This document shows positions 24,294 to 42,668 of a stretch of 64,000 bases of DNA, one piece after another (position 1 is the stretch's first letter; every line of letters begins with the position of its first letter). The translations under genes and the position numbers were made by a program. The notes under the pieces were generated by a model, which was given only the letters and a program-made list of their open reading frames with translations, made no database searches and was not told where the DNA came from. The stretch is from a phage, in assembly GCA_021469345.1 (NCBI GenBank), contig GCA_021469345.1_3049.1; one strand, written 5' to 3'.

Positions 24294-25995
24294 CAATTGT
24301 GTATTGACCAGATGAAATAGAACTCATAGATGCCATTTTTTCTGTCCAATCACCACCAACGTCCCAATCAACTGTCCCAGCAACTTTCCAAGAAAGATTT
24401 CCATTTACTGTGTTAGTTTGATTACCTTCAACTAAAGTGGTAGCATCTCCTTTAACTGTAATGTCAGCATTGCCTTCAACTACAATAGTAACATTACCTT
24501 TAACTAGAATAGTTCCATTACCTTCAACCGTCTTAGTTTCATCGCCACGTACAAATATTGTATTGCTTCCATCTATTTGGTGAAGACGATTATCCATGTT
24601 GTAATAAATTTCTGATCCACCGACGTTAGTCTTTTTATCACCGGCTACCAAAAAATTACCATCAGCATTTGTTATATCATACAAATTATCAACAGTTTTT
24701 CTTGTTCTTCTCCCTGACGGTGATACTTCTTCATAAGTTCCAGTTGGATGAACTAATCTATATCGTTCTTGCCCAGGGGTATCATCAAATTCCTGAATAT
24801 GTCCACTTTCAGTTTCCATTGTATGCACATAAGGATATTCACCTTTATATGAAGAAACTGGTTCTTTGAATAAAATTCTCGAGTCATTTGGAATAGGAGG
24901 GTCAGCAGGGTCAGAAGATTTAGCTACAGTAGCAGCCATTGCTGATAAAGACCTAGCTGGGGTTTTCACTTCAACACCGTATGATTCCAAATTCCCCGTA
25001 AGAATAATCATGGTAACACGGGATGCACGGCCTTTTGTTTGTTGATACCACAATGAATCACGACCGGCTTTATATGCTTTTTCCCAATCTCCTGCTAACA
25101 TAGCAGTTAACATTGTGTTAAATTTAGCTACACCGCCAACACCCATCTGAAATGCCATATTTTCTAACGCCATTTGACGAGAACGGTTGACAGCTTGCCA
25201 GACTGGTCCTACTTTAGAATGTGATTTAATGTCACGTTGCATATCAGCCAAATCACGCTCAAATAAAGTCGTCGCTTCTTCCATTGTAATAGAACCTGGA
25301 TTTCCTGTAATTTCACGACCAACTTGTTTCGATAAAACTTTATTAATTTGAGCCATATCACGAACTGGCTGCTTCATGATAAGATGACCAATACCAATTG
25401 TCGGATATCCTTCGGTATCCCAATAAACTTTTAGTCTTAATCCTTCATCACGGCGAAGCATTTCAGCCATTGACATATTTGGATTATCATCGGTTGGAAT
25501 CTCTGATAGTGGTCTATCATCGGGATTTATTGCGGTGTCTAAGTTACTATCTTGAATAACGTTAGAAGAGGAATCATATCCTACTTCTCCGCCTTGGTTT
25601 AATACGTTAGTATCATTTCCTAGACGTCTAGGATACTGTCCAGTCGGGTCAGAAAATCCTTCAAGTCTATTAGGCTTTTCGCGAACTATTCCGCCATAAG
25701 TACCAAGGACAATTCCGTTAGTTTTCCATTTGTCTAAAAAATGACCATAAACTCTAGTTCCTTCTACTGGCCCTGTAACAGAACCTCCAATTCCAGACAT
25801 TGCTGCAGAAGTTATAGGTTGAATAACTGACATCCATGGCAATTTATCGGTTGGAATACCCATTACGTCGCCTTGCGCTCTTTGGGGTGGATGCAGACCA
25901 ACCACACGAACACGAACACGACCTAATTTTAATGGGTCCATTCTATCTTCAACAACACCAACAAACCAATTAAGGTTATTACTTATCATTTCCAT
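24268..25995 (-). CDS. 5: Baseplate hub and tail lysozyme gp5
   Basis: 575 aa as in T4 gp5; internal lysozyme-like segment MAEMLRRDEGLRLKVYWDTEGYPTIGIGH; C-terminal VEGN/VKGN beta-helix repeats. Confidence 0.92.
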   Translation of the reverse strand: MEMISNNLNWFVGVVEDRMDPLKLGRVRVRVVGLHPPQRAQGDVMGIPTDKLPWMSVIQPITSAAMSGIGGSVTGPVEGTRVYGHFLDKWKTNGIVLGTYGGIVREKPNRLEGFSDPTGQYPRRLGNDTNVLNQGGEVGYDSSSNVIQDSNLDTAINPDDRPLSEIPTDDNPNMSMAEMLRRDEGLRLKVYWDTEGYPTIGIGHLIMKQPVRDMAQINKVLSKQVGREITGNPGSITMEEATTLFERDLADMQRDIKSHSKVGPVWQAVNRSRQMALENMAFQMGVGGVAKFNTMLTAMLAGDWEKAYKAGRDSLWYQQTKGRASRVTMIILTGNLESYGVEVKTPARSLSAMAATVAKSSDPADPPIPNDSRILFKEPVSSYKGEYPYVHTMETESGHIQEFDDTPGQERYRLVHPTGTYEEVSPSGRRTRKTVDNLYDITNADGNFLVAGDKKTNVGGSEIYYNMDNRLHQIDGSNTIFVRGDETKTVEGNGTILVKGNVTIVVEGNADITVKGDATTLVEGNQTNTVNGNLSWKVAGTVDWDVGGDWTEKMASMSSISSGQYTIDGSRIDIG

Positions 25996-30062: not shown

Positions 30063-30350
30063 ATGAAAACTTTCAAAGAATTTACTTCTACAACTACCCC
30101 GGTTTCTACTATTACTGAAGCTACTCTTACTTCTGAAGTTATTAAAGCAAATAAAGGACGAGAAGGTAAACCAATGATTAGTTTGGTTGATGGCGAAGAA
30201 ATCAAAGGTACTGTTTACCTAGGTGATGGGTGGTCTGCTAAAAAGGATGGTGCTACAATCATTATCTCTCCTGCTGAAGAAACTGCGTTGTTTAAAGCTA
30301 AACACATTTCTGCGGCACATCTCAAGATTATTGCTAAAAATCTTTTGTAA
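30063..30350 (+). CDS. ipI: Internal protein I (capsid-packaged, injected)
   Basis: 95 aa; N-terminal capsid-targeting leader MKTFKEFTSTT...ITE/A; T4 IPI length and position. Confidence 0.88.
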   Translation: MKTFKEFTSTTTPVSTITEATLTSEVIKANKGREGKPMISLVDGEEIKGTVYLGDGWSAKKDGATIIISPAEETALFKAKHISAAHLKIIAKNLL

Positions 30351-32009: not shown

Positions 32010-32675
32010 ATGTTCCATTACACTTATAAAATAACAAATAAAATTAATAATAAAATTTATATTGGTGTGCATTCTACCGAAAATTTAGATGATGGATATA
32101 TGGGTTCTGGTAAATTATTAAAAAGAGCTCAAGATAAGTATGGTATAGAAAATTTTTCTAAAGAAATATTAGAGTATTTTGATGATAAAGAATCTATGCT
32201 TGAAGCCGAGAAAAATATTGTCACAGAAGAGTTTTTAAATAGACCAGATGTGTATAATTTAAAACTTGGCGGTGAAGGTGGATGGGACCATATAAATATT
32301 CCTGGGATGCTAAACCAGAAGAAAGACGCTAGTTTAAAAGGAGCTAAATCGTTTAAGTCACGTTTTAAAAATGATATTTTACTTCAAGAAAAATATCGTA
32401 AACATGGTTCAAATGTATTTAAACGCTTGTGGTCAACTCCTGAATACAGGGAAAAATTTTTAAATAATAGCAGATTTTTAAATAAGCATCATACTCCTGA
32501 AACTATTAATAAAATGAAAGAATCTCACGCCAGAAATAAACATCAACAGGGCGAAAAGAATTCCCAATTTGGTATGATGTGGATTCATTCATTAGATGAA
32601 AAAGTTTCTAAACGTATTAAGAAAACTGACCCAATTCCAGAAGGATGGCTTAAAGGTCGAAAAATGAAATTTTAA
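32010..32675 (+). CDS. segB: GIY-YIG homing endonuclease SegB
   Basis: 221 aa; N-terminal YTYKITN...KIYIGVHST...YMGSG GIY-YIG module; inserted inside the tRNA cluster as in T4. Confidence 0.85.
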   Translation: MFHYTYKITNKINNKIYIGVHSTENLDDGYMGSGKLLKRAQDKYGIENFSKEILEYFDDKESMLEAEKNIVTEEFLNRPDVYNLKLGGEGGWDHINIPGMLNQKKDASLKGAKSFKSRFKNDILLQEKYRKHGSNVFKRLWSTPEYREKFLNNSRFLNKHHTPETINKMKESHARNKHQQGEKNSQFGMMWIHSLDEKVSKRIKKTDPIPEGWLKGRKMKF

Positions 32676-33136: not shown

Positions 33137-33599
33137 ATGAAAACTTATGCTCAATTTTTAATGACCGAAGCATCCGCTTCAGATGTTCGCGCTGTAGCAA
33201 CTGCTGCTATTAAAGCTGGTAAATATTCTTATAAAGATGCTTCTGACGAATCTCGGTACAAGTTCTATGACGATATGAGAGCTGAAGGCTTTGTGGGTAA
33301 CTATGTTACCACCGCCTGGAAAAGCCTGGTTGCTACTGGTGCGGCTTTCGAAAAACCTTCTGGTAAACCTGCTCCTAAGGCTGACCCTAAAGCAGCACAA
33401 GAAAAAAAATATTGCTAAAGGAATTATCTCTAGGTATGAAGCAATTCTTAAAGAACTTTTGATAATTAAGACCGAAGGCCAGAAACTTGCACGTGCTTAT
33501 AGTTTCAAAGATAATCCACATGCTCATGACCTAGAGTATGTTGAAGACCTCCAAAAAATCATCAAAGACCGCATTTGGTCTGCTAAACAAATCAAATAA
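33137..33599 (+). CDS. Internal-protein-like gene with capsid-targeting leader; reading frame split at an A8 tract (33402-33409)
   Basis: Late promoter TATAAATA at 33101, SD, leader MKTYAQFLMTE/A. Frame A stops at 33418; frame B continues from the A-run to 33599 and ends at a terminator. One fewer A would fuse them into about 150 aa. Confidence 0.6.
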
Positions 33600-36751: not shown

Positions 36752-37095
36752 ATAAAGTCAAATATTCGCTTCCTGAGTCATTTTTAATTTTTGCTGTGGC
36801 GTTGGCTGCAGCTCTTGCGGGTAGTCTTTTTGGATTATTAATTGACTGTCTTATTTTAAACATCGACGGCACAGTAAATATAACAGAAGTTTGGAGTGAA
36901 CTTCACTATACTAAAATTATTTCATTATTTTCATTCTTTGGTACCATGTTATATTTTCATTATGATAATTTTAAAATAAATTGGCAAAGAAAAAAGGATT
37001 ACAAAATACAATTAAAAGAATATAATAGCTACATGTCTTATATTGAAAATGAATCAATGAAAGAGTTTGTGAGTGATTGCAGGAAATTAAAATGA
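36733..37095 (+). CDS. Membrane protein, paralog of the previous gene
   Basis: 120 aa; hydrophobic segments and a similar C-tail (MKEFVSDCRKLK). Confidence 0.5.
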   Translation: MQKPKLNKVKYSLPESFLIFAVALAAALAGSLFGLLIDCLILNIDGTVNITEVWSELHYTKIISLFSFFGTMLYFHYDNFKINWQRKKDYKIQLKEYNSYMSYIENESMKEFVSDCRKLK

Positions 37096-37532
37096 AAACA
37101 TTATCAGCTGGTATTATCTTCATGACAGAAGATAAAGATTTATTTATGGGTCGGGTCACTGGTTCTCGTAAGCCTGGAATGATGGCGCATCGCTGGGATA
37201 TTCCAAAAGGGCGTGTAGAAAGTTCTGATTTGAATGCACTGGAAGCTGCAAAAAGAGAATGCTTAGAAGAGACCGGTTTTAGCAATTATAATCCAGACCT
37301 TCTAGAAGACCTAGGTGTATTTAAATATTCTAGTAATAAAGACTTACAGTTATTTTATTATACGATTCCAGTAGAGCATGAGATGTTTAGAAATTGCCAT
37401 TGCGAGTCTTATTTTGAAAATAAAGATGGCGTTATGATTCCAGAGATGGATGCTTTTGCTCTTATTCCTCGTACTCAGTGGCAATATGTGATTGGCCCTT
37501 CACTTTACCGAATAATGAACAGCCTCTTTTAA
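37077..37532 (+). CDS. nudE: Nudix hydrolase NudE (e.1)
   Basis: Nudix box GRVESSDLNALEAAKRECLEETGF; immediately upstream of e as in T4. Confidence 0.8.
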   Translation: MQEIKMKTLSAGIIFMTEDKDLFMGRVTGSRKPGMMAHRWDIPKGRVESSDLNALEAAKRECLEETGFSNYNPDLLEDLGVFKYSSNKDLQLFYYTIPVEHEMFRNCHCESYFENKDGVMIPEMDAFALIPRTQWQYVIGPSLYRIMNSLF

Positions 37533-38100
<568 letters not shown>

Positions 38101-38158
38101 TACAGTTACTTGAAGAGACAAATTATTAATTAAAATATTTTACATTTAAAGGAAACAT

Positions 38159-38632
38159 ATGAAAACATATCAAGAATTTATTACTGAAGCAGCTATTAAT
38201 TCTCAAATTATTGCTGAATCTTTTACTGATCTTTTGAAATTTAAAAAAGGCCAAAAAATCACTGCTGTATTGGATGATGGTACAGAAGTTGAGATGGATG
38301 TACAAGGATATAATTATGCAGTAGATGGAAAACTGTATAATAAATCTCATGCTAAATTTGATTCATTTGACGACTTTGTTAATACAGTTGAAGATGAAAA
38401 AACTCGTCGATCCATTGCAACTGGTGATGCTAAGGTTCTTATGGCACATGGTCATGAACGCATTCGCGCTAAACAGAATAAAATGGGTGAAGATAATTTT
38501 GCATTAGTTGGTTATCAATCTGGTAAACAAACCTATGGTTATCAGCGTACTGCTACCATGTATAATAAAAATGGTAAAATTGCCTTTGTGAATAGTAAGG
38601 GTTCTATTCAGTACGTTAAATCGTTCAAATAA
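38159..38632 (+). CDS. Internal protein (IPII/IPIII-like) with capsid-targeting leader
   Basis: 157 aa; leader MKTYQEFITE/A with gp21-type L/I-x-E cleavage context; adjacent to e as ipIII/ipII are in T4, but the length differs from both. Confidence 0.7.
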   Translation: MKTYQEFITEAAINSQIIAESFTDLLKFKKGQKITAVLDDGTEVEMDVQGYNYAVDGKLYNKSHAKFDSFDDFVNTVEDEKTRRSIATGDAKVLMAHGHERIRAKQNKMGEDNFALVGYQSGKQTYGYQRTATMYNKNGKIAFVNSKGSIQYVKSFK

Positions 38633-38737
38633 GCAAATAAGAAATATGGGAACAACCTGGACCTCATGATTCTGTGAGGGATTCCCGCCAACCTGTAATA
38701 AGGTCGAGCCCAAGTGCGGTAATGGGTAAATACAGAA

Positions 38738-39325
38738 ATGGACAATTCATGCGCCACGGAATGGCCCAAACTTAGAGAGAATAAAATGAGAACATTTTTA
38801 ACTGGTCCTTATCTATCCCTGATGAATGCTTTTACACACCATTCTGATGCTAGAGTAGAAGAAATTTGTAAAAACGATTATATCCCACCATTTGAAGATT
38901 TACTTAAAGAGTATTGTACACTTCGTATAGATGGTGGACGTCAATCTGGTAAATCAATTGCTGTGACTAATTTTGCTGCTAATTGGTTGTATGATGGCGG
39001 AACAGTTATTGTTCTTTCTAATACTTCAGCTTACGCTAAAATTTCTGCAAATAACATTAAAAAGGAATTTTCGCGTTATTCTAATGATGATATACGTTTT
39101 CGTTTATTTACTGATTCTGTGCGTAGTTTTATTGGTAATAAAGGAAGCAAGTTCAGAGGTTTATCGCTTTCGCGAATTTTGTATATAATTGACGAGCCTG
39201 TCAAATCTCCTGATATGGATAAGATTTATAGTGTCCATATTGACACTGTACACTACTGCTGTAATAGTAAATGTTGCATTGGTGGTATTACTCGTCCACA
39301 GTTTTTCGTAATCGGAATGCAATGA
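38738..39325 (+). CDS. Hypothetical P-loop protein
   Basis: Walker A-like GGRQSGKS and Walker B-like LYIIDEP; start may be the internal MRTFL. Confidence 0.5.
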   Translation: MDNSCATEWPKLRENKMRTFLTGPYLSLMNAFTHHSDARVEEICKNDYIPPFEDLLKEYCTLRIDGGRQSGKSIAVTNFAANWLYDGGTVIVLSNTSAYAKISANNIKKEFSRYSNDDIRFRLFTDSVRSFIGNKGSKFRGLSLSRILYIIDEPVKSPDMDKIYSVHIDTVHYCCNSKCCIGGITRPQFFVIGMQ

Positions 39326-39422
39326 TGACAGACACTCAGCTTTTCGAATATCTTTATTTTTCGCCAAAAACTATTAAAAATAAATTGGTGAATCATTTTG
39401 AAATTTTGGCAAAAATAACATT

Positions 39423-39650
39423 TTGAGCGAATTTTATCCTAAGCAATACAAATTACAAAAAGGCGTATTCAAAGGATGCAGAGTTTTGTGCACGGCTCCT
39501 AATGCACGGCTAATGAATAAAATTCCATATTTTACCATGGAATTTATTGATGGGCCTTTTAAAGGACTAATCACCCAAAGTTTAATGGCATATGATTCTG
39601 AGCCATTTTTAATTAAAGAACAATCTTGGATAAATTTATTTTCTAATTGA
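39423..39650 (+). CDS. Hypothetical protein
   Basis: 75 aa ORF; low information. Confidence 0.4.
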
Positions 39651-39657
39651 GGTTTAT

Positions 39658-40020
39658 ATGAAAGCATATCAAATTCTTGAAGGCACACACAAAGGTACTA
39701 TTTATTTTGAACACGGTATTCAAGCACGAATTATTGTCTCTAAAACCTTTAAAGAGGACTCTTTTGTAGACCCAGAAATTTTCTACGGTTTGCATGCCCG
39801 TGAAATTGAAATTGAGCAACAGCCTACAGTTAAAATTGAAGGTGGTCAACACCTGAACGTTAACGTTCTGCGTCGTGAAACTCTGGAAGATGCAGTTAAG
39901 CATCCGGAAAAATATCCGCAGCTGACCATCCGTGTATCCGGTTATGCAGTTCGCTTTAACTCTCTGACTCCGGAACAGCAGCGCGACGTTATCGCTCGTA
40001 CCTTTACCGAGAGTTTGTAA
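39658..40020 (+). CDS. Autonomous glycyl radical cofactor (GrcA/YfiD-like)
   Basis: C-terminal about 60 aa ([62 protein letters not shown]) carry the RVSGY glycyl-radical signature and match E. coli GrcA as I remember it; N-terminal part unrelated. Confidence 0.85.
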
Positions 40021-40241
40021 TGGCAAAGATAATTATTGAAGGTTCTGAAGATGTGCTAAATGCTTTCGCCGAATGGTTTAGTAATTCAGGCGAACAGCAA
40101 TTTAACGAAGCATGGAACATGGGTGATATTAATGGAATTTATCCTACTACAGAAATTTCTGTTCAGGGATATGGCATTCATGAACCTATTCGTTTAGTTG
40201 AATACGATTTATGTACTGGTGAGGAAGTCAAATATGATTGA
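40020..40241 (+). CDS. Hypothetical small acidic protein
   Basis: 73 aa ORF tightly coupled to the preceding gene. Confidence 0.45.
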   Translation: MAKIIIEGSEDVLNAFAEWFSNSGEQQFNEAWNMGDINGIYPTTEISVQGYGIHEPIRLVEYDLCTGEEVKYD

Positions 40242-40500
40242 AGATATTAAAGGTTATAAGCCACATACCGACGAAAAAATCGGTAAAGTAAATGCTATTA
40301 AAGACGCTGAAGTTCGTTTAGGACTTATCTTTGATGCTTTATACGATGAATTTTGGGAAGCATTTGATAGCTGTGAAGATGATGAACTCGCGAAGAATTA
40401 CGCCGAAAGCCTCGATCAGTTAACTATTGCTAAAACGAAACTCAAAGAAGCCAGTATGTGGGCTTGCCGTGCAGTGTTTCAACCAGAGGAAAAATACTAA
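40234..40500 (+). CDS. Hypothetical small acidic helical protein (vs.4 / Acb2-like position, unverified)
   Basis: About 88 aa from the ATG after SD GAGGAAG; acidic; positional inference only. Confidence 0.45.
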
Positions 40501-40778
40501 TGGCTCAATTAAGCGCAGGGTTTGGTTATGAGTATTATACTGCCCCTCGTCGTGTATCTGTTGCTCCTAAGAAAATTCAAAGTCTTGATGACTTCCAGGA
40601 AGTAGTTCGTAACGCTTTCCAGGACTATGCACGTTATCTTAAAGAAGATTCACAGGACTGTCTCGAAGAAGATGAAATTGCTTACTATGAGCAGCGTCTT
40701 GAACAGCTCAAAAATCTACATGAGGTTCGTGCAGAAGTTTCAAAGTCTATGAATAAATTGATTAGATTTAAAGAATAA
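40500..40778 (+). CDS. Hypothetical protein
   Basis: About 92 aa from [13 protein letters not shown]; TAATG overlap with the upstream gene. Confidence 0.45.
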
Positions 40779-40812
40779 CTGTTTACTTTTCCTCTTGACT
40801 GTGGTATAATTT
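40770..40812 (+). promoter_or_regulatory. Early promoter for regB
   Basis: GTTTAC at 40781, perfect TATAAT at 40805-40810. Confidence 0.6.
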
Positions 40813-40837
40813 TTCTATCAGTTAAGAGGAGAATAAC

Positions 40838-41299
40838 ATGACTATCAATACAGAAGTTTTTATCCGTCGAAATAAGCTTCGTCGTCACTTTGAGTCGGAG
40901 TTTCGTCAAATTAACAATGAGATTCGTGAGGCATCAAAAGCAGCAGGGGTCTCATCGTTTCATCTAAAATATTCTCAACATCTTCTTGATCGCGCAATTC
41001 AACGGGAGATTGATGAGACATACGTTTTTGAATTATTCCATAAAATAAAAGACCATGTTTTAGAAGTTAATGAATTCCTGAGTATGCCTCCGCGTCCTGA
41101 CATTGACGAGGATTTTATTGATGGGGTTGAATATCGTCCTGGACGTTTAGAAATCACAGATGGAAATCTTTGGCTTGGATTTACAGTTTGTAAGCCTAAT
41201 GAGAAGTTCAAAAACCCGTCACTTCAATGCAGGATGGCAATTATCAATAGTCGTCGTTTACCAGGAAAGGCTTCTAAAGCAGTAATTAAAACTCAATGA
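40838..41299 (+). CDS. regB: Endoribonuclease RegB
   Basis: 153 aa as in T4 RegB; basic N-terminus MTINTEVFIRRNKLRRHFESEFRQ; early promoter upstream. Confidence 0.85.
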   Translation: MTINTEVFIRRNKLRRHFESEFRQINNEIREASKAAGVSSFHLKYSQHLLDRAIQREIDETYVFELFHKIKDHVLEVNEFLSMPPRPDIDEDFIDGVEYRPGRLEITDGNLWLGFTVCKPNEKFKNPSLQCRMAIINSRRLPGKASKAVIKTQ

Positions 41300-41306
41300 G
41301 GTAAGC

Positions 41307-41852
41307 ATGAGAAAAGCACTACTCGCTGGTCTATTGGCCATTTCAATGATGGCACATAGCTCCGAGCATACTTTCAGTAATGTCCAACTCGATAACATGC
41401 GTTACGCATATCAATTCGGGGAACAATTTTCTAAGGATGGAAAATATAAAACACATAAAAATATCCACAAGAGCGGATTAGGTCATATAATGGCTGCTAT
41501 TTTATGGCAAGAAAGCTCTGGCGGAGTTAATTTAAAATCTAAACCAAAGCATCACGCTTATGGAATGTTCCAAAATTATTTGCCTACTATGCGAGCAAGA
41601 GTTAAGGAACTTGGTTATAATATGACCGATGCTGAAATAAAAAGAATGTTGAATAAACGATCCAATTCAGCTTCCTGGGCGTACATTGAACTTTCTTATT
41701 GGTTAAATATACATAAGGGCGATATAAGAAAAGCAATATCCTCTTATAATTCGGGATGGAATGTTAAAGCTGGTTCTAAATATGCTTCTGAAGTCCTAGA
41801 AAAGGCTAATTACCTTAAAAATAATAAACTTTTGGAAATAGTAAATGACTAA
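41307..41852 (+). CDS. Secreted protein with signal peptide (vs.1-like)
   Basis: 181 aa; MRKALLAGLLAISMMAHS signal peptide; between regB and vs. Confidence 0.6.
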   Translation: MRKALLAGLLAISMMAHSSEHTFSNVQLDNMRYAYQFGEQFSKDGKYKTHKNIHKSGLGHIMAAILWQESSGGVNLKSKPKHHAYGMFQNYLPTMRARVKELGYNMTDAEIKRMLNKRSNSASWAYIELSYWLNIHKGDIRKAISSYNSGWNVKAGSKYASEVLEKANYLKNNKLLEIVND

Positions 41853-42192
41853 AATTTTGGTTTTATGTATAGGATTAATTTCATTTTCTGCTTCTGCGTC
41901 AGCAGATACATCATATACTGAAATTAGAGAATATGTAAACCGCACTGCGGCAGATTATTGTGGGAAAAATAAAGCATGCCAAGCTGAATTTGCACAGAAA
42001 TTAATATATGCATATAAAGACGGAGAAAGAGATAAATCAAGCAGATACAAAAACGATACATTATTAAAACGATATGCTAAAAAGTGGAATACCTTAGAAT
42101 GTTCAGTTGCGGAGGAGAAAGATAAAGCCGCTTGTCATTCAATGGTTGACCGTTTGGTAGATTCTTATAATCGAGGATTGAGTACTAGATGA
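41845..42192 (+). CDS. vs: Secreted protein, Vs-like (valyl-tRNA synthetase modifier position)
   Basis: 115 aa with signal peptide MTKILVLCIGLISFSASASA; T4 vs is of similar size and location. Confidence 0.55.
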   Translation: MTKILVLCIGLISFSASASADTSYTEIREYVNRTAADYCGKNKACQAEFAQKLIYAYKDGERDKSSRYKNDTLLKRYAKKWNTLECSVAEEKDKAACHSMVDRLVDSYNRGLSTR

Positions 42193-42668
42193 TTGTAAAA
42201 TATATCAAGGGCGATATTGTCGCCCTCTTTCTTGAAGGTAATATTATTGCGCACGGGTGCAATTGTTTTCATACAATGGGCAGTGGTGTAGCTGGTCAAT
42301 TAGCAAGAGCCTATCCCAAAATTTTAGAAATAGATAAAACCACTACCGAGTACGGTTCTCGTGATAAATTAGGCGATATGTCTATTGTTTTTAAACATAA
42401 ACCTAATGGTTTTGGCATATGTTATAACTTGTATACGCAATACGAACCAGGTCCTAATCTTGATTATGGTGCTTTAGTAAACTGCATGATAGAATTAAAT
42501 CTACAGGCAGAAACCCTTTTGTTTAAACCAGTAATTTACATTCCACGCATAGGTTGTGGTATTGCTGGCGGCGATTGGGATAAGGTTTCTAAATTAATCG
42601 ACATGTTTACTCCTGATATTGATTTAATAGTGGTGGATTATGAAAGTACATTACCCACATCCGTTTGA
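42189..42668 (+). CDS. Macro-domain (ADP-ribose binding/processing) protein
   Basis: 159 aa; KGDIVALF...IIAHGCNCFHTMGSGVAGQLA and IYIPRIGCGIAGGDW resemble the macro-domain motifs GDIT...N.AN...GGGV and the distal G-x-G loop. Confidence 0.65.
   Translation: MIVKYIKGDIVALFLEGNIIAHGCNCFHTMGSGVAGQLARAYPKILEIDKTTTEYGSRDKLGDMSIVFKHKPNGFGICYNLYTQYEPGPNLDYGALVNCMIELNLQAETLLFKPVIYIPRIGCGIAGGDWDKVSKLIDMFTPDIDLIVVDYESTLPTSV

Follow-up and report, generated by a model that had tools for sequence, protein, structure and literature searches.

The interval between e and regB in this phage is very probably, judging from sequence comparison, an ordinary Tequatrovirus segment whose arrangement is annotated in phages AR1, RB14 and RB32 and is also seen in T2. 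The locus is already known and holds nothing new, consisting mostly of the standard, described T4 gene set: a single internal-protein gene, Ip4, is followed by the conserved operon vs.8-vs.7-vs.6-vs.5-vs.4-vs.3 (38159-40778; Table 1). The single piece of the interval that departs from T4 is Ip4, itself a named and widespread allele.

Table 1. Features of the e-regB interval and its borders (positions in the window)
Feature	Position	Strand	Basis or remarks
Conserved 5' module of internal-protein genes	38068..38158	+	Aligns with T4 e-ipIII and ipIII-ipII intergenic regions, AR1, teqskov
Ip4 internal head protein, 157 aa	38159..38632	+	PF24183, phrog_3155, AR1 annotation
Non-T4 segment (Ip4 body), 453 bp	38191..38643	+	blastn, window against T4
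vs.8 upstream leader, 3' anchor of swapped cassette	38644..38785	+	Continuous T4 homology from 38644
vs.8, 179-aa P-loop NTPase	38786..39325	+	98% identical to T4 Vs.8 residues 41-219
vs.7, split	39322..39650	+	Parts 39322-39426 (34 aa) and 39423-39650 (75 aa)
vs.6, GrcA/Y06I-type autonomous glycyl-radical 'spare part' protein	39658..40020	+	97.5% identical to T4 Vs.6
vs.5, intact 73-aa form, acidic (pI 4.05)	40020..40241	+	phrog_1986, E 7e-44, full length
vs.4 = Acb2, cyclic-oligonucleotide sponge (anti-CBASS)	40234..40500	+	94% identical to T4 Vs.4
vs.3 = TadIV-1, N7-cADPR sponge (anti-type IV Thoeris), long form, 92 aa	40500..40778	+	91/92 identical to T4 Vs.3
Early-type promoter TTTACT-17-TATAAT	40782..40810	+	Promoter scan; 5' of regB, end of interval
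regB	40838-41299		99% identical to T4 RegB; bounds interval

Comparison of the interval with T4 and its relatives

The order of this region in T4 (NC_000866) is e-ipIII-ipII-denV-vs.8...vs.3-regB. When the window (the whole 64,000-nucleotide stretch of DNA that was analysed) is compared with T4 by blastn, homology is interrupted only between 38190 and 38644, and from 38644 to 42338 the DNA is 96.5% identical. Window and T4 have in common e, vs.8, vs.7, vs.6, vs.4, vs.3 and regB, the encoded proteins (Vs.8, Vs.7, Vs.6, Vs.4 and Vs.3 among them) being 94-100% identical, as well as the promoter/leader module of the internal-protein genes and the vs.8 leader. What distinguishes the window from T4 is the absence of denV, as in T2, and the exchange of one injected head-protein gene, a common swap.

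The original prediction had read the whole interval as a lineage-specific variable island in which a P-loop protein and small acidic proteins were new anti-defence candidates, a reading that we consider highly improbable. It drew on real features: the products of vs.5, vs.4 and vs.3 are indeed three small acidic proteins (pI 4.05, 4.56 and 5.23), two of the small proteins are truly sponges, and the body of Ip4 is unrelated to T4 IPII and IPIII. Alignment with T4, which the prediction had itself proposed as a check, nevertheless gave the outcome it had named as contrary to an island, in that all reading frames from the P-loop protein through vs.3 align cleanly with T4 orthologues. Each protein is a close match to a named T4 gene product, the DNA of 38644-40778 shares the identity given above, the gene arrangement, which the annotations of AR1, RB14 and RB32 record, is a common one in phage records, and the sponge functions have been published already. 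Variability therefore survives for the 453-bp Ip4 body only. The open reading frames that the prediction listed are real at the positions it gave, but vs.6 and vs.7 had been overlooked.

Phages AR1, RB14, RB32 and T2 share the order e-Ip4-vs.8-vs.7-vs.6-(73-aa ORF)-vs.4-vs.3-regB at a locus without denV, and their DNA matches the whole of the 2774-bp query at 96.5-97% identity. The AR1 annotation of this order reads Ip4, vs.8, vs.7, vs.6, vs.4, vs.3, and the same names are used in RB14 and RB32; in T2, Ip4 follows e with no denV between them. The window differs from T2 in that vs.8 is intact rather than fragmented, and from all four phages in that its vs.7 is split by a 1-nt deletion private to it.

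Borders of the exchanged cassette and the absence of denV

The T4 counterpart of the non-T4 segment is 1441 bp long and comprises the ipIII body, ipII and denV. On the left, T4 homology stops within the leader codons of the internal-protein gene; on the right, it resumes 12 nt past the Ip4 stop codon. The conserved 5' module, with T4 early-promoter-like hexamers (GTTTAC at 38068-38073 and TAGTAT at 38092-38097), is found upstream of ipIII, ipII and Ip4, the ribosome-binding site AAAGGAAACAT precedes the Ip4 ATG, and the Ip4 leader aligns with T4 ipII and ipIII. On the other side, the vs.8 leader is near-invariant in T4, T2, AR1 and teqskov, the aligned T4 sequence reaching to about 38727. From these breakpoints we infer that the cassette would have been exchanged by homologous recombination over shared flanks, with the promoter, ribosome-binding site and capsid-targeting codons common to all internal-protein genes serving as the left border, and the near-invariant leader 5' of vs.8 as the right.

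The T4 annotation treats the vs.8 leader as an N-terminal extension of Vs.8 beginning at GTG; this GTG frame is closed by a stop at 38775 in the window, and members of the Vs.8 family begin with M[RKN]TFLT. A structured RNA in this GC-richer leader was considered and dropped, as shuffled sequence folds just as well (z = +0.6), and a search of 37000-42000 against Rfam (E<=1) returned no match.

That the region holds no endonuclease V-like reading frame had been noted earlier, and the absence extends across the 64-kb window: tblastn with T4 DenV had no hit at E<=1, and blastn with denV at word size 7 gave chance matches of at most 32 nt only. The spacer between e and Ip4 is 95 bp. In teqskov a 400-bp denV cassette lies between e and Ip4, replacing window positions 38123-38131, and encodes a DenV 78% identical to that of T4, with flanks at 95-97%. 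denV would seem to behave as a separate 400-bp cassette, situated between e and Ip4 in some relatives and missing in the present phage. Phage T2 classically lacks v (denV) function, and the present phage, because it has no denV, is predicted to be UV-sensitive like T2.

The order e-Ip4-vs.8 without denV may be the older arrangement, with the ipIII-ipII-denV of T4 a derived, more complex insert, in which case the present phage lost no genes; we give this history not quite an even chance. More distant genera (~71-72% DNA identity) place Ip4 right after the endolysin gene. In Klebsiella phage vB_Kp_M198, a P-loop ORF of the size of Vs.8 comes after e-Ip4 under the annotation 'terminase large subunit'; Salmonella phage Melville also has e-Ip4, and its annotation shows no denV in the interval from e to regB. 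Additionally, the Ip4 body is present in more phage records than the T4 ipIII body (471 against 261), and the two denV alleles, standing at two positions and diverged to only 78% identity, suggest independent cassette placements. Such record counts, however, reflect sampling, and Klebsiella, Salmonella and Yersinia phages also have ipIII-type genes. DenV, moreover, is widespread (1107 records), which makes loss in the present lineage equally possible.

Ip4 is probably an injected anti-defence protein

The original prediction correctly described a single 157-aa internal protein with a capsid-targeting leader (MKTYQEFITE, residues 1-10) and correctly set it apart from IPII and IPIII. The protein belongs to the Ip4 family, matching PF24183 (DUF7412) with 319.4 bits (cut-off 27, E 6e-96, residues 1-157 on profile positions 1-158) and phrog_3155, 'internal virion protein', with E 6e-102. 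The allele is named Ip4 in RB14, RB32 and AR1 and ipIV in PP01, and is also present in T2. Without its leader, Ip4 has no similarity by BLASTP to IPII, IPIII or the window's own IPI (E > 1), and no solved structure is related to its fold. A literature search turned up neither experiments nor papers that deal with Ip4 itself.

Two motifs of the head-protease (gp21) type, L/I-x-E followed by a small residue, occur at ITE10/A and IAE20/S; the family alignment shows E10 and E20 as nearly invariant (>=90%), and a basic mature protein (pI 9.1-9.3) is predicted. By comparison with other internal proteins, the leader probably carries Ip4 into the prohead, where the head protease would trim it after E10 and E20. 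The trimmed protein, basic and of ~15.5 kDa, would then enter the host along with the DNA.

By analogy, Ip4 is probably an injected protein that blocks a first-line host defence. T4 IPI* inhibits GmrSD, a type IV restriction enzyme, and anti-defence roles of internal proteins have been described (PMC9391042; bioRxiv 10.1101/2025.11.20.689424): IPIII is required for infecting ECOR17 (PMC9391042), and in phage Bas37 the inhibitor of McrBC is Bas37_0260, a protein that also has a leader (bioRxiv 10.1101/2025.11.20.689424). Ip4 resembles IPI*, IPIII and Bas37_0260 in its N-terminal capsid-targeting leader, its small basic predicted mature protein and its swap-prone locus, and resembles IPI in having two protease-type L/I-x-E sites. 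Past the leader, however, it lacks sequence similarity to T4 IPI*, IPIII and Bas37_0260, and its Pfam family is PF24183 rather than PF11634. We tentatively put forward the joint proposal, possible rather than probable, that Ip4 may inhibit type IV restriction or an ECOR17-type system as the first-line defence and that the 73-aa Vs.5 may be a third anti-defence protein.

The sponge genes vs.4 and vs.3 and their upstream neighbours

The identification of vs.4 as a Vs.4/Acb2 sponge gene, already put forward as a candidate in the original prediction, stands. The protein matches PF24729, the Acb2/Tad1 hairpin domain (71 bits, cut-off 27, E 9e-20), and PDB 7UQ2, 'Vs.4' (E 4e-53, 94% identity), and the equivalence of acb2 and vs.4 is published (PMC12657218). 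Five substitutions separate it from T4 Vs.4, four of them within residues 43-52. The neighbours of vs.4 had been proposed as further sponge candidates, and this is borne out for vs.3, although not as a novelty, since T4 Vs.3 (99% identical) was published in 2026 (Nat Commun) as TadIV-1, an N7-cADPR sponge (PMC13243611). Only long TadIV-1 homologues (~90 aa, with a flexible N-terminal region) inhibit type IV Thoeris, and R17, R18 and K24 matter in the T4 protein (PMC13243611). Vs.3 of the window, which has a homologue in PDB 9WIW (E 6e-38) and differs from T4 Vs.3 by the one substitution T64E, keeps these three residues and the long N-terminal region. On the published activities of the near-identical T4 proteins, Vs.4/Acb2 would sequester cyclic-oligonucleotide immune signals and Vs.3/TadIV-1 would sequester N7-cADPR from type IV Thoeris.

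Vs.6 carries the motif RVSGYAV, with G95 as the radical glycine, and matches PF01228 (Gly_radical) with 67 bits (cut-off 22.2); against the NCBIfam equivalog TIGR04365 it scores 154.6 bits, under the cut-off of 170, and the N-terminal part of phage Vs.6 diverges from bacterial GrcA. Its function is taken from that described for T4 Y06I (PMC8683613) and not from the equivalog model: as in the near-identical T4 protein, Vs.6 would serve as a replacement glycyl-radical domain, restoring pyruvate formate-lyase that oxygen has cleaved.

Homologue searches with Vs.5 recovered only phage proteins of 72-74 aa, and no relative was found in PDB. The annotated T4 Vs.5 has 58 aa, owing to a 1-nt deletion that the window, AR1 and T2 lack. 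The gene adjoins the sponge genes vs.4 and vs.3 on their upstream side, and because the T4 reference vs.5 is frameshifted, a third anti-defence role may have escaped work on T4.

Vs.8, a small P-loop protein

The P-loop protein of the original prediction exists as described but is not specific to an island, being T4 Vs.8. Its Walker A motif (GGRQSGKS, 38933-38956) and Walker B motif (LYIIDEP, 39179-39199) are both invariant or nearly so across a small family, which at 50% identity comes to just 41 clusters in a set of 1.84 billion proteins. No curated family was matched above threshold (AAA_14, 15.8 bits against 27; Terminase_6N, 12.9 bits against 22; AAA_30, sub-threshold), and the best family-search E-value among members of the Vs.8 family, ~1e-4, is likewise below family thresholds. 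A profile search of PDB reached gp17 at E 0.02, and a structural model of low confidence (pLDDT 55) resembles RecA-like ATPase domains. We infer that Vs.8 is a minimal one-domain RecA-like ATPase; the model being poor, this assignment draws on the Walker motifs and the weak matches. Compared with the RecA-like domains of terminase large subunits and SF2 helicases, Vs.8 differs in being a single domain of 179 aa with no nuclease or second RecA domain. Literature searches on vs.8, vs.7 and vs.5, and on denV in T2, gave nothing useful.

The interruption of vs.7

DNA alignment places the break in vs.7 in the A-run at 39411-39415, where the window has A5 and T4 has A6, and this 1-nt deletion is probably a sequencing error. 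A biologically real break, either a pseudogene or programmed -1/+1 slippage on the A-run, is unlikely, even though A5 brings in a stop codon (39424-39426) and the C-terminal part starts anew from a TTG at 39423. An 81-nt query across the break has an exact match in none of 437 related phage records, and a second frameshift in the window also falls in a poly-A run (A8 at 33402-33409 against A7 in RB27), a signature of homopolymer sequencing error. Both halves, furthermore, are 100% identical to T4 Vs.7 (residues 1-31 and 35-109), so that there has been no decay since the break. As vs.7 is interrupted in the window sequence, the operon may include one non-functional gene.

Predicted equipment of the phage and its annotation

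The phage is predicted to be equipped with Acb2 against CBASS and TadIV-1 against type IV Thoeris; its predicted set of injected proteins includes IPI and Ip4 and lacks IPII and IPIII. Should the phage be a candidate for therapy, this equipment bears on its host range. Next to the proven anti-defence genes stand Ip4, Vs.8 and the intact Vs.5. Upstream of regB, the early-type promoter of Table 1 comes from a consensus promoter/terminator scan that yielded 17 promoter-like sites, not in excess of shuffled sequence (expected 13.4). Eight genes of the region are now correctly named. Several carry propagated misnomers in public records, where Vs.x homologues appear as 'endoribonuclease' and a Vs.8 homologue as 'terminase large subunit'.

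Composition of the e-regB interval

The window phage is T4-like, of the genus Tequatrovirus, and the plus strand of the window has the orientation of T4 early transcripts. The original prediction described the interval between the lysozyme gene e and regB as a variable island, and all of the ORFs on which it was built exist where they had been placed. The first residues of the 157-aa ORF, MKTYQEFITE, are the leader that targets T4 internal proteins to the capsid; the P-loop protein carries GGRQSGKS as well as a Walker B motif; and the three small acidic proteins at 40020-40778 have pI values of 4.05, 4.56 and 5.23. This inventory, however, overlooked vs.7 and a GrcA-type glycyl-radical gene, vs.6.

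Features of the e-regB interval and other window features discussed
Feature	Window position	Protein identity to T4 or remark
Second lysozyme-like sequence	24979-25476 (- strand)	43% identical to e
IPI	30063-30350	
GIY-YIG-like ORF (221 aa)	32010-32675	
Third leader-bearing gene	33137-33599	
nudE	37077-37532	flanks the Ip4-vs interval
e (lysozyme)	37569-38063	97%
Ip4 (157 aa)	38159-38632	
vs.8	from 38786	98% (residues 41-219)
vs.7	39322-39650	100% (both halves)
vs.6	39658-40020	97.5%
vs.5 (73 aa)	40020-40241	
vs.4 (acb2)		94%
vs.3 (TadIV-1)		99%
regB	40838-41299	99%
vs.1, vs, tk.4		also neighbour the interval

Variability is confined to 453 bp. In blastn comparisons, homology to T4 is unbroken across e and the intergenic promoter and reaches 30 nt into the internal-protein gene, to 38190; it restarts at 38644, 12 nt past the Ip4 stop codon, and extends to 42338 at 96.5% identity. 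The T4 counterpart of the gap is 1441 bp long and holds the ipIII body, ipII and denV. From the P-loop ORF onwards all genes align cleanly with their T4 orthologues, the outcome that the original prediction had itself named as refuting, and the P-loop protein is T4 Vs.8. Of the original prediction, the observations are partly confirmed, and there is partial support for the interpretation.

Both the gene content and the arrangement of the locus are already known. Phage records match the full 2774-bp interval end to end at 96.5-97.5% identity; AR1, RB14 and RB32 are annotated with Ip4, vs.8, vs.7, vs.6, vs.4 and vs.3, and in PP01 the Ip4 gene is named ipIV. The Ip4 body is found in 471 records, T2 among them, and the T4 ipIII body in 261. 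Since Ip4 also lies directly after the endolysin gene in the more distant Klebsiella phage vB_Kp_M198 and Salmonella phage Melville, the e-Ip4-vs.8 arrangement may be the older one and that of T4 derived. In vB_Kp_M198 the ORF following Ip4 encodes a Vs.8-sized P-loop protein annotated as 'terminase large subunit'.

Proposed cassette exchange and the position of denV

Approximately 150 bp 5' of ipIII, ipII and Ip4 form one common module, in which an early-promoter-like GTTTAC...TAGTAT is followed by the ribosome-binding site AAAGGAAACAT and then by the leader codons, while about 140 nt on the 3' side (38644-38785) are near-invariant among T4, T2, AR1 and teqskov. The breakpoints coincide exactly with these common segments, which fits the outcome of homologous recombination between co-infecting T-even phages, by which Ip4 would have been swapped. 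In T4 the 3' segment is annotated as coding, from the GTG start of Vs.8, and this frame is broken in the window. The segment has no Rfam match and its folding is not unusual; its G+C content is above that of its surroundings.

No denV had been recognised in the interval, and the T4 DenV query finds no match anywhere in the window (tblastn, E<=1); sensitive blastn returned only chance matches. The spacer between e and Ip4 is only 95 bp. Phage T2 likewise has e-Ip4 and lacks denV; T2 is classically without v (denV) function and is more UV sensitive than T4. Teqskov carries a 400-bp denV cassette between e and Ip4, in place of window 38123-38131. The gene thus lies between e and Ip4 in teqskov (L002 1560-1976), whereas it lies between ipII and vs.8 in T4; the two DenV proteins are only 78% identical, with flanks at 95-97%, and both alleles have their own early-type promoter upstream. 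denV is a unit of its own.

Two TATAAATA late-promoter motifs are located just 5' of e, at 37535 and 37548, and the motif is absent from the 95-bp spacer. Late e transcripts could read through into Ip4.

Ip4 and other leader-bearing proteins

Ip4 gives a full-length match to PF24183 (DUF7412), with 319 bits, and also matches phrog_3155, 'internal virion protein'. Its family is narrow, with 14 clusters at 90% identity, all of about 157 aa. Ip4 has two sites of the head-protease type, ITE10|A and IAE20|S, and E10 and E20 are close to invariant across the family; a second I-x-E site like that of Ip4, ITE19|A, occurs in the leader of the window's IPI. T4 IPI is processed at two sites in like manner. 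The mature Ip4 is predicted to be basic (pI 9.1-9.3), and the part past the leader resembles none of IPI, IPII and IPIII. A literature search found no published work on Ip4. Its candidate role as an injected anti-defence protein is suggested by analogy with other leader-bearing proteins: IPI inhibits GmrSD and IPIII is required for infection of ECOR17 (PMC9391042), and in Bas37 a protein with such a leader inhibits McrBC (bioRxiv 10.1101/2025.11.20.689424).

The window phage encodes IPI, the GmrSD nuclease inhibitor (PF11634, 179 bits; phrog_4363), Ip4 and a third, internal-protein-like product that opens MKTYAQFLMTE|AS...; IPII and IPIII are absent. The match of the third protein to phrog_2280 is confined to the family's first half, and its RB27 counterpart is a single 153-aa ORF downstream of rnaC. 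In the window this ORF is divided by a 1-nt insertion (A8 at 33402-33409, A7 in RB27). A 1-nt deletion in another A-run (A5 at 39411-39415, A6 in T4) cuts vs.7 into pieces of 34 and 75 aa, and the exact window vs.7 sequence occurs in none of 437 related phage records. Because both poly-A frameshifts fall in otherwise perfectly conserved genes, they point to homopolymer sequencing error rather than biology.

Products of the vs genes

The conserved start of Vs.8 is M[RKN]TFLT, at 38786. The GTG extension annotated in T4 is probably leader rather than protein, since a frame change disrupts it in the window. Walker A and Walker B are kept across the family, for which a set of 1.84 billion proteins clustered at 50% identity yields only 41 clusters. 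Matches to AAA_14, Terminase_6N, AAA_30 and T4 gp17 were all sub-threshold, and from its sequence Vs.8 can be read as a minimal one-domain ASCE ATPase. In the T2 record (L004 3072-3718) vs.8 is in three short ORFs, with the C-terminal 110 aa alone left as one ORF, and T2 may be without a working Vs.8. A Vs.8-sized P-loop ORF in the Klebsiella phage locus (L005 3596-4129) is mislabelled 'terminase large subunit'.

In Vs.6 the glycyl-radical motif is RVSGYAV; the protein passed PF01228, and its score against the equivalog model for bacterial GrcA was slightly under the cut-off. Experiments on T4 Y06I have validated it as a spare part that serves pyruvate formate-lyase after cleavage by oxygen (PMC8683613). 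The 73-aa acidic ORF is intact vs.5, with a full-length match to phrog_1986. Compared with the window, AR1 and T2, the T4 reference vs.5 (L003 2882-3058) has a 1-nt deletion, GCC to GC, and is out of frame beyond residue 17, so that the annotated 58-aa T4 Vs.5 reads as a frameshifted version of this conserved protein.

The proposal that small acidic proteins here are sponges was sound; for Vs.4 and Vs.3 it has been superseded by published work. Vs.4 passed PF24729 and matched PDB 7UQ2, 'Vs.4', at E 4e-53; acb2 is vs.4 (PMC12657218), and the window protein is identified by this similarity as Acb2. T4 Vs.3 has been shown to be TadIV-1, a dimeric sponge that takes up N7-cADPR, the type IV Thoeris signal; its N-terminal flexible region and R17, R18 and K24 are required (Nature Communications 2026, PMC13243611). 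The window Vs.3 matches PDB 9WIW, from that study, at E 6e-38; it is the long form, identical to T4 Vs.3 at 91 of 92 residues, and keeps R17, R18 and K24. The name 'Endoribonuclease' on 9WIW is a propagated misannotation, as are the 'endoribonuclease' and 'RegB' labels on Vs.8, Vs.7 and Vs.3 homologues (teqskov L002 2601-4593).

Elsewhere in the window, the second lysozyme-like sequence is, from its position and identity, probably the lysozyme domain of the baseplate protein gp5. The 221-aa ORF, flanked by a probable tRNA region on one side and the e.x genes on the other, has a GIY-YIG-like N-terminus (YKITNKINNKIYIGV) and may be a Seg-type homing endonuclease.
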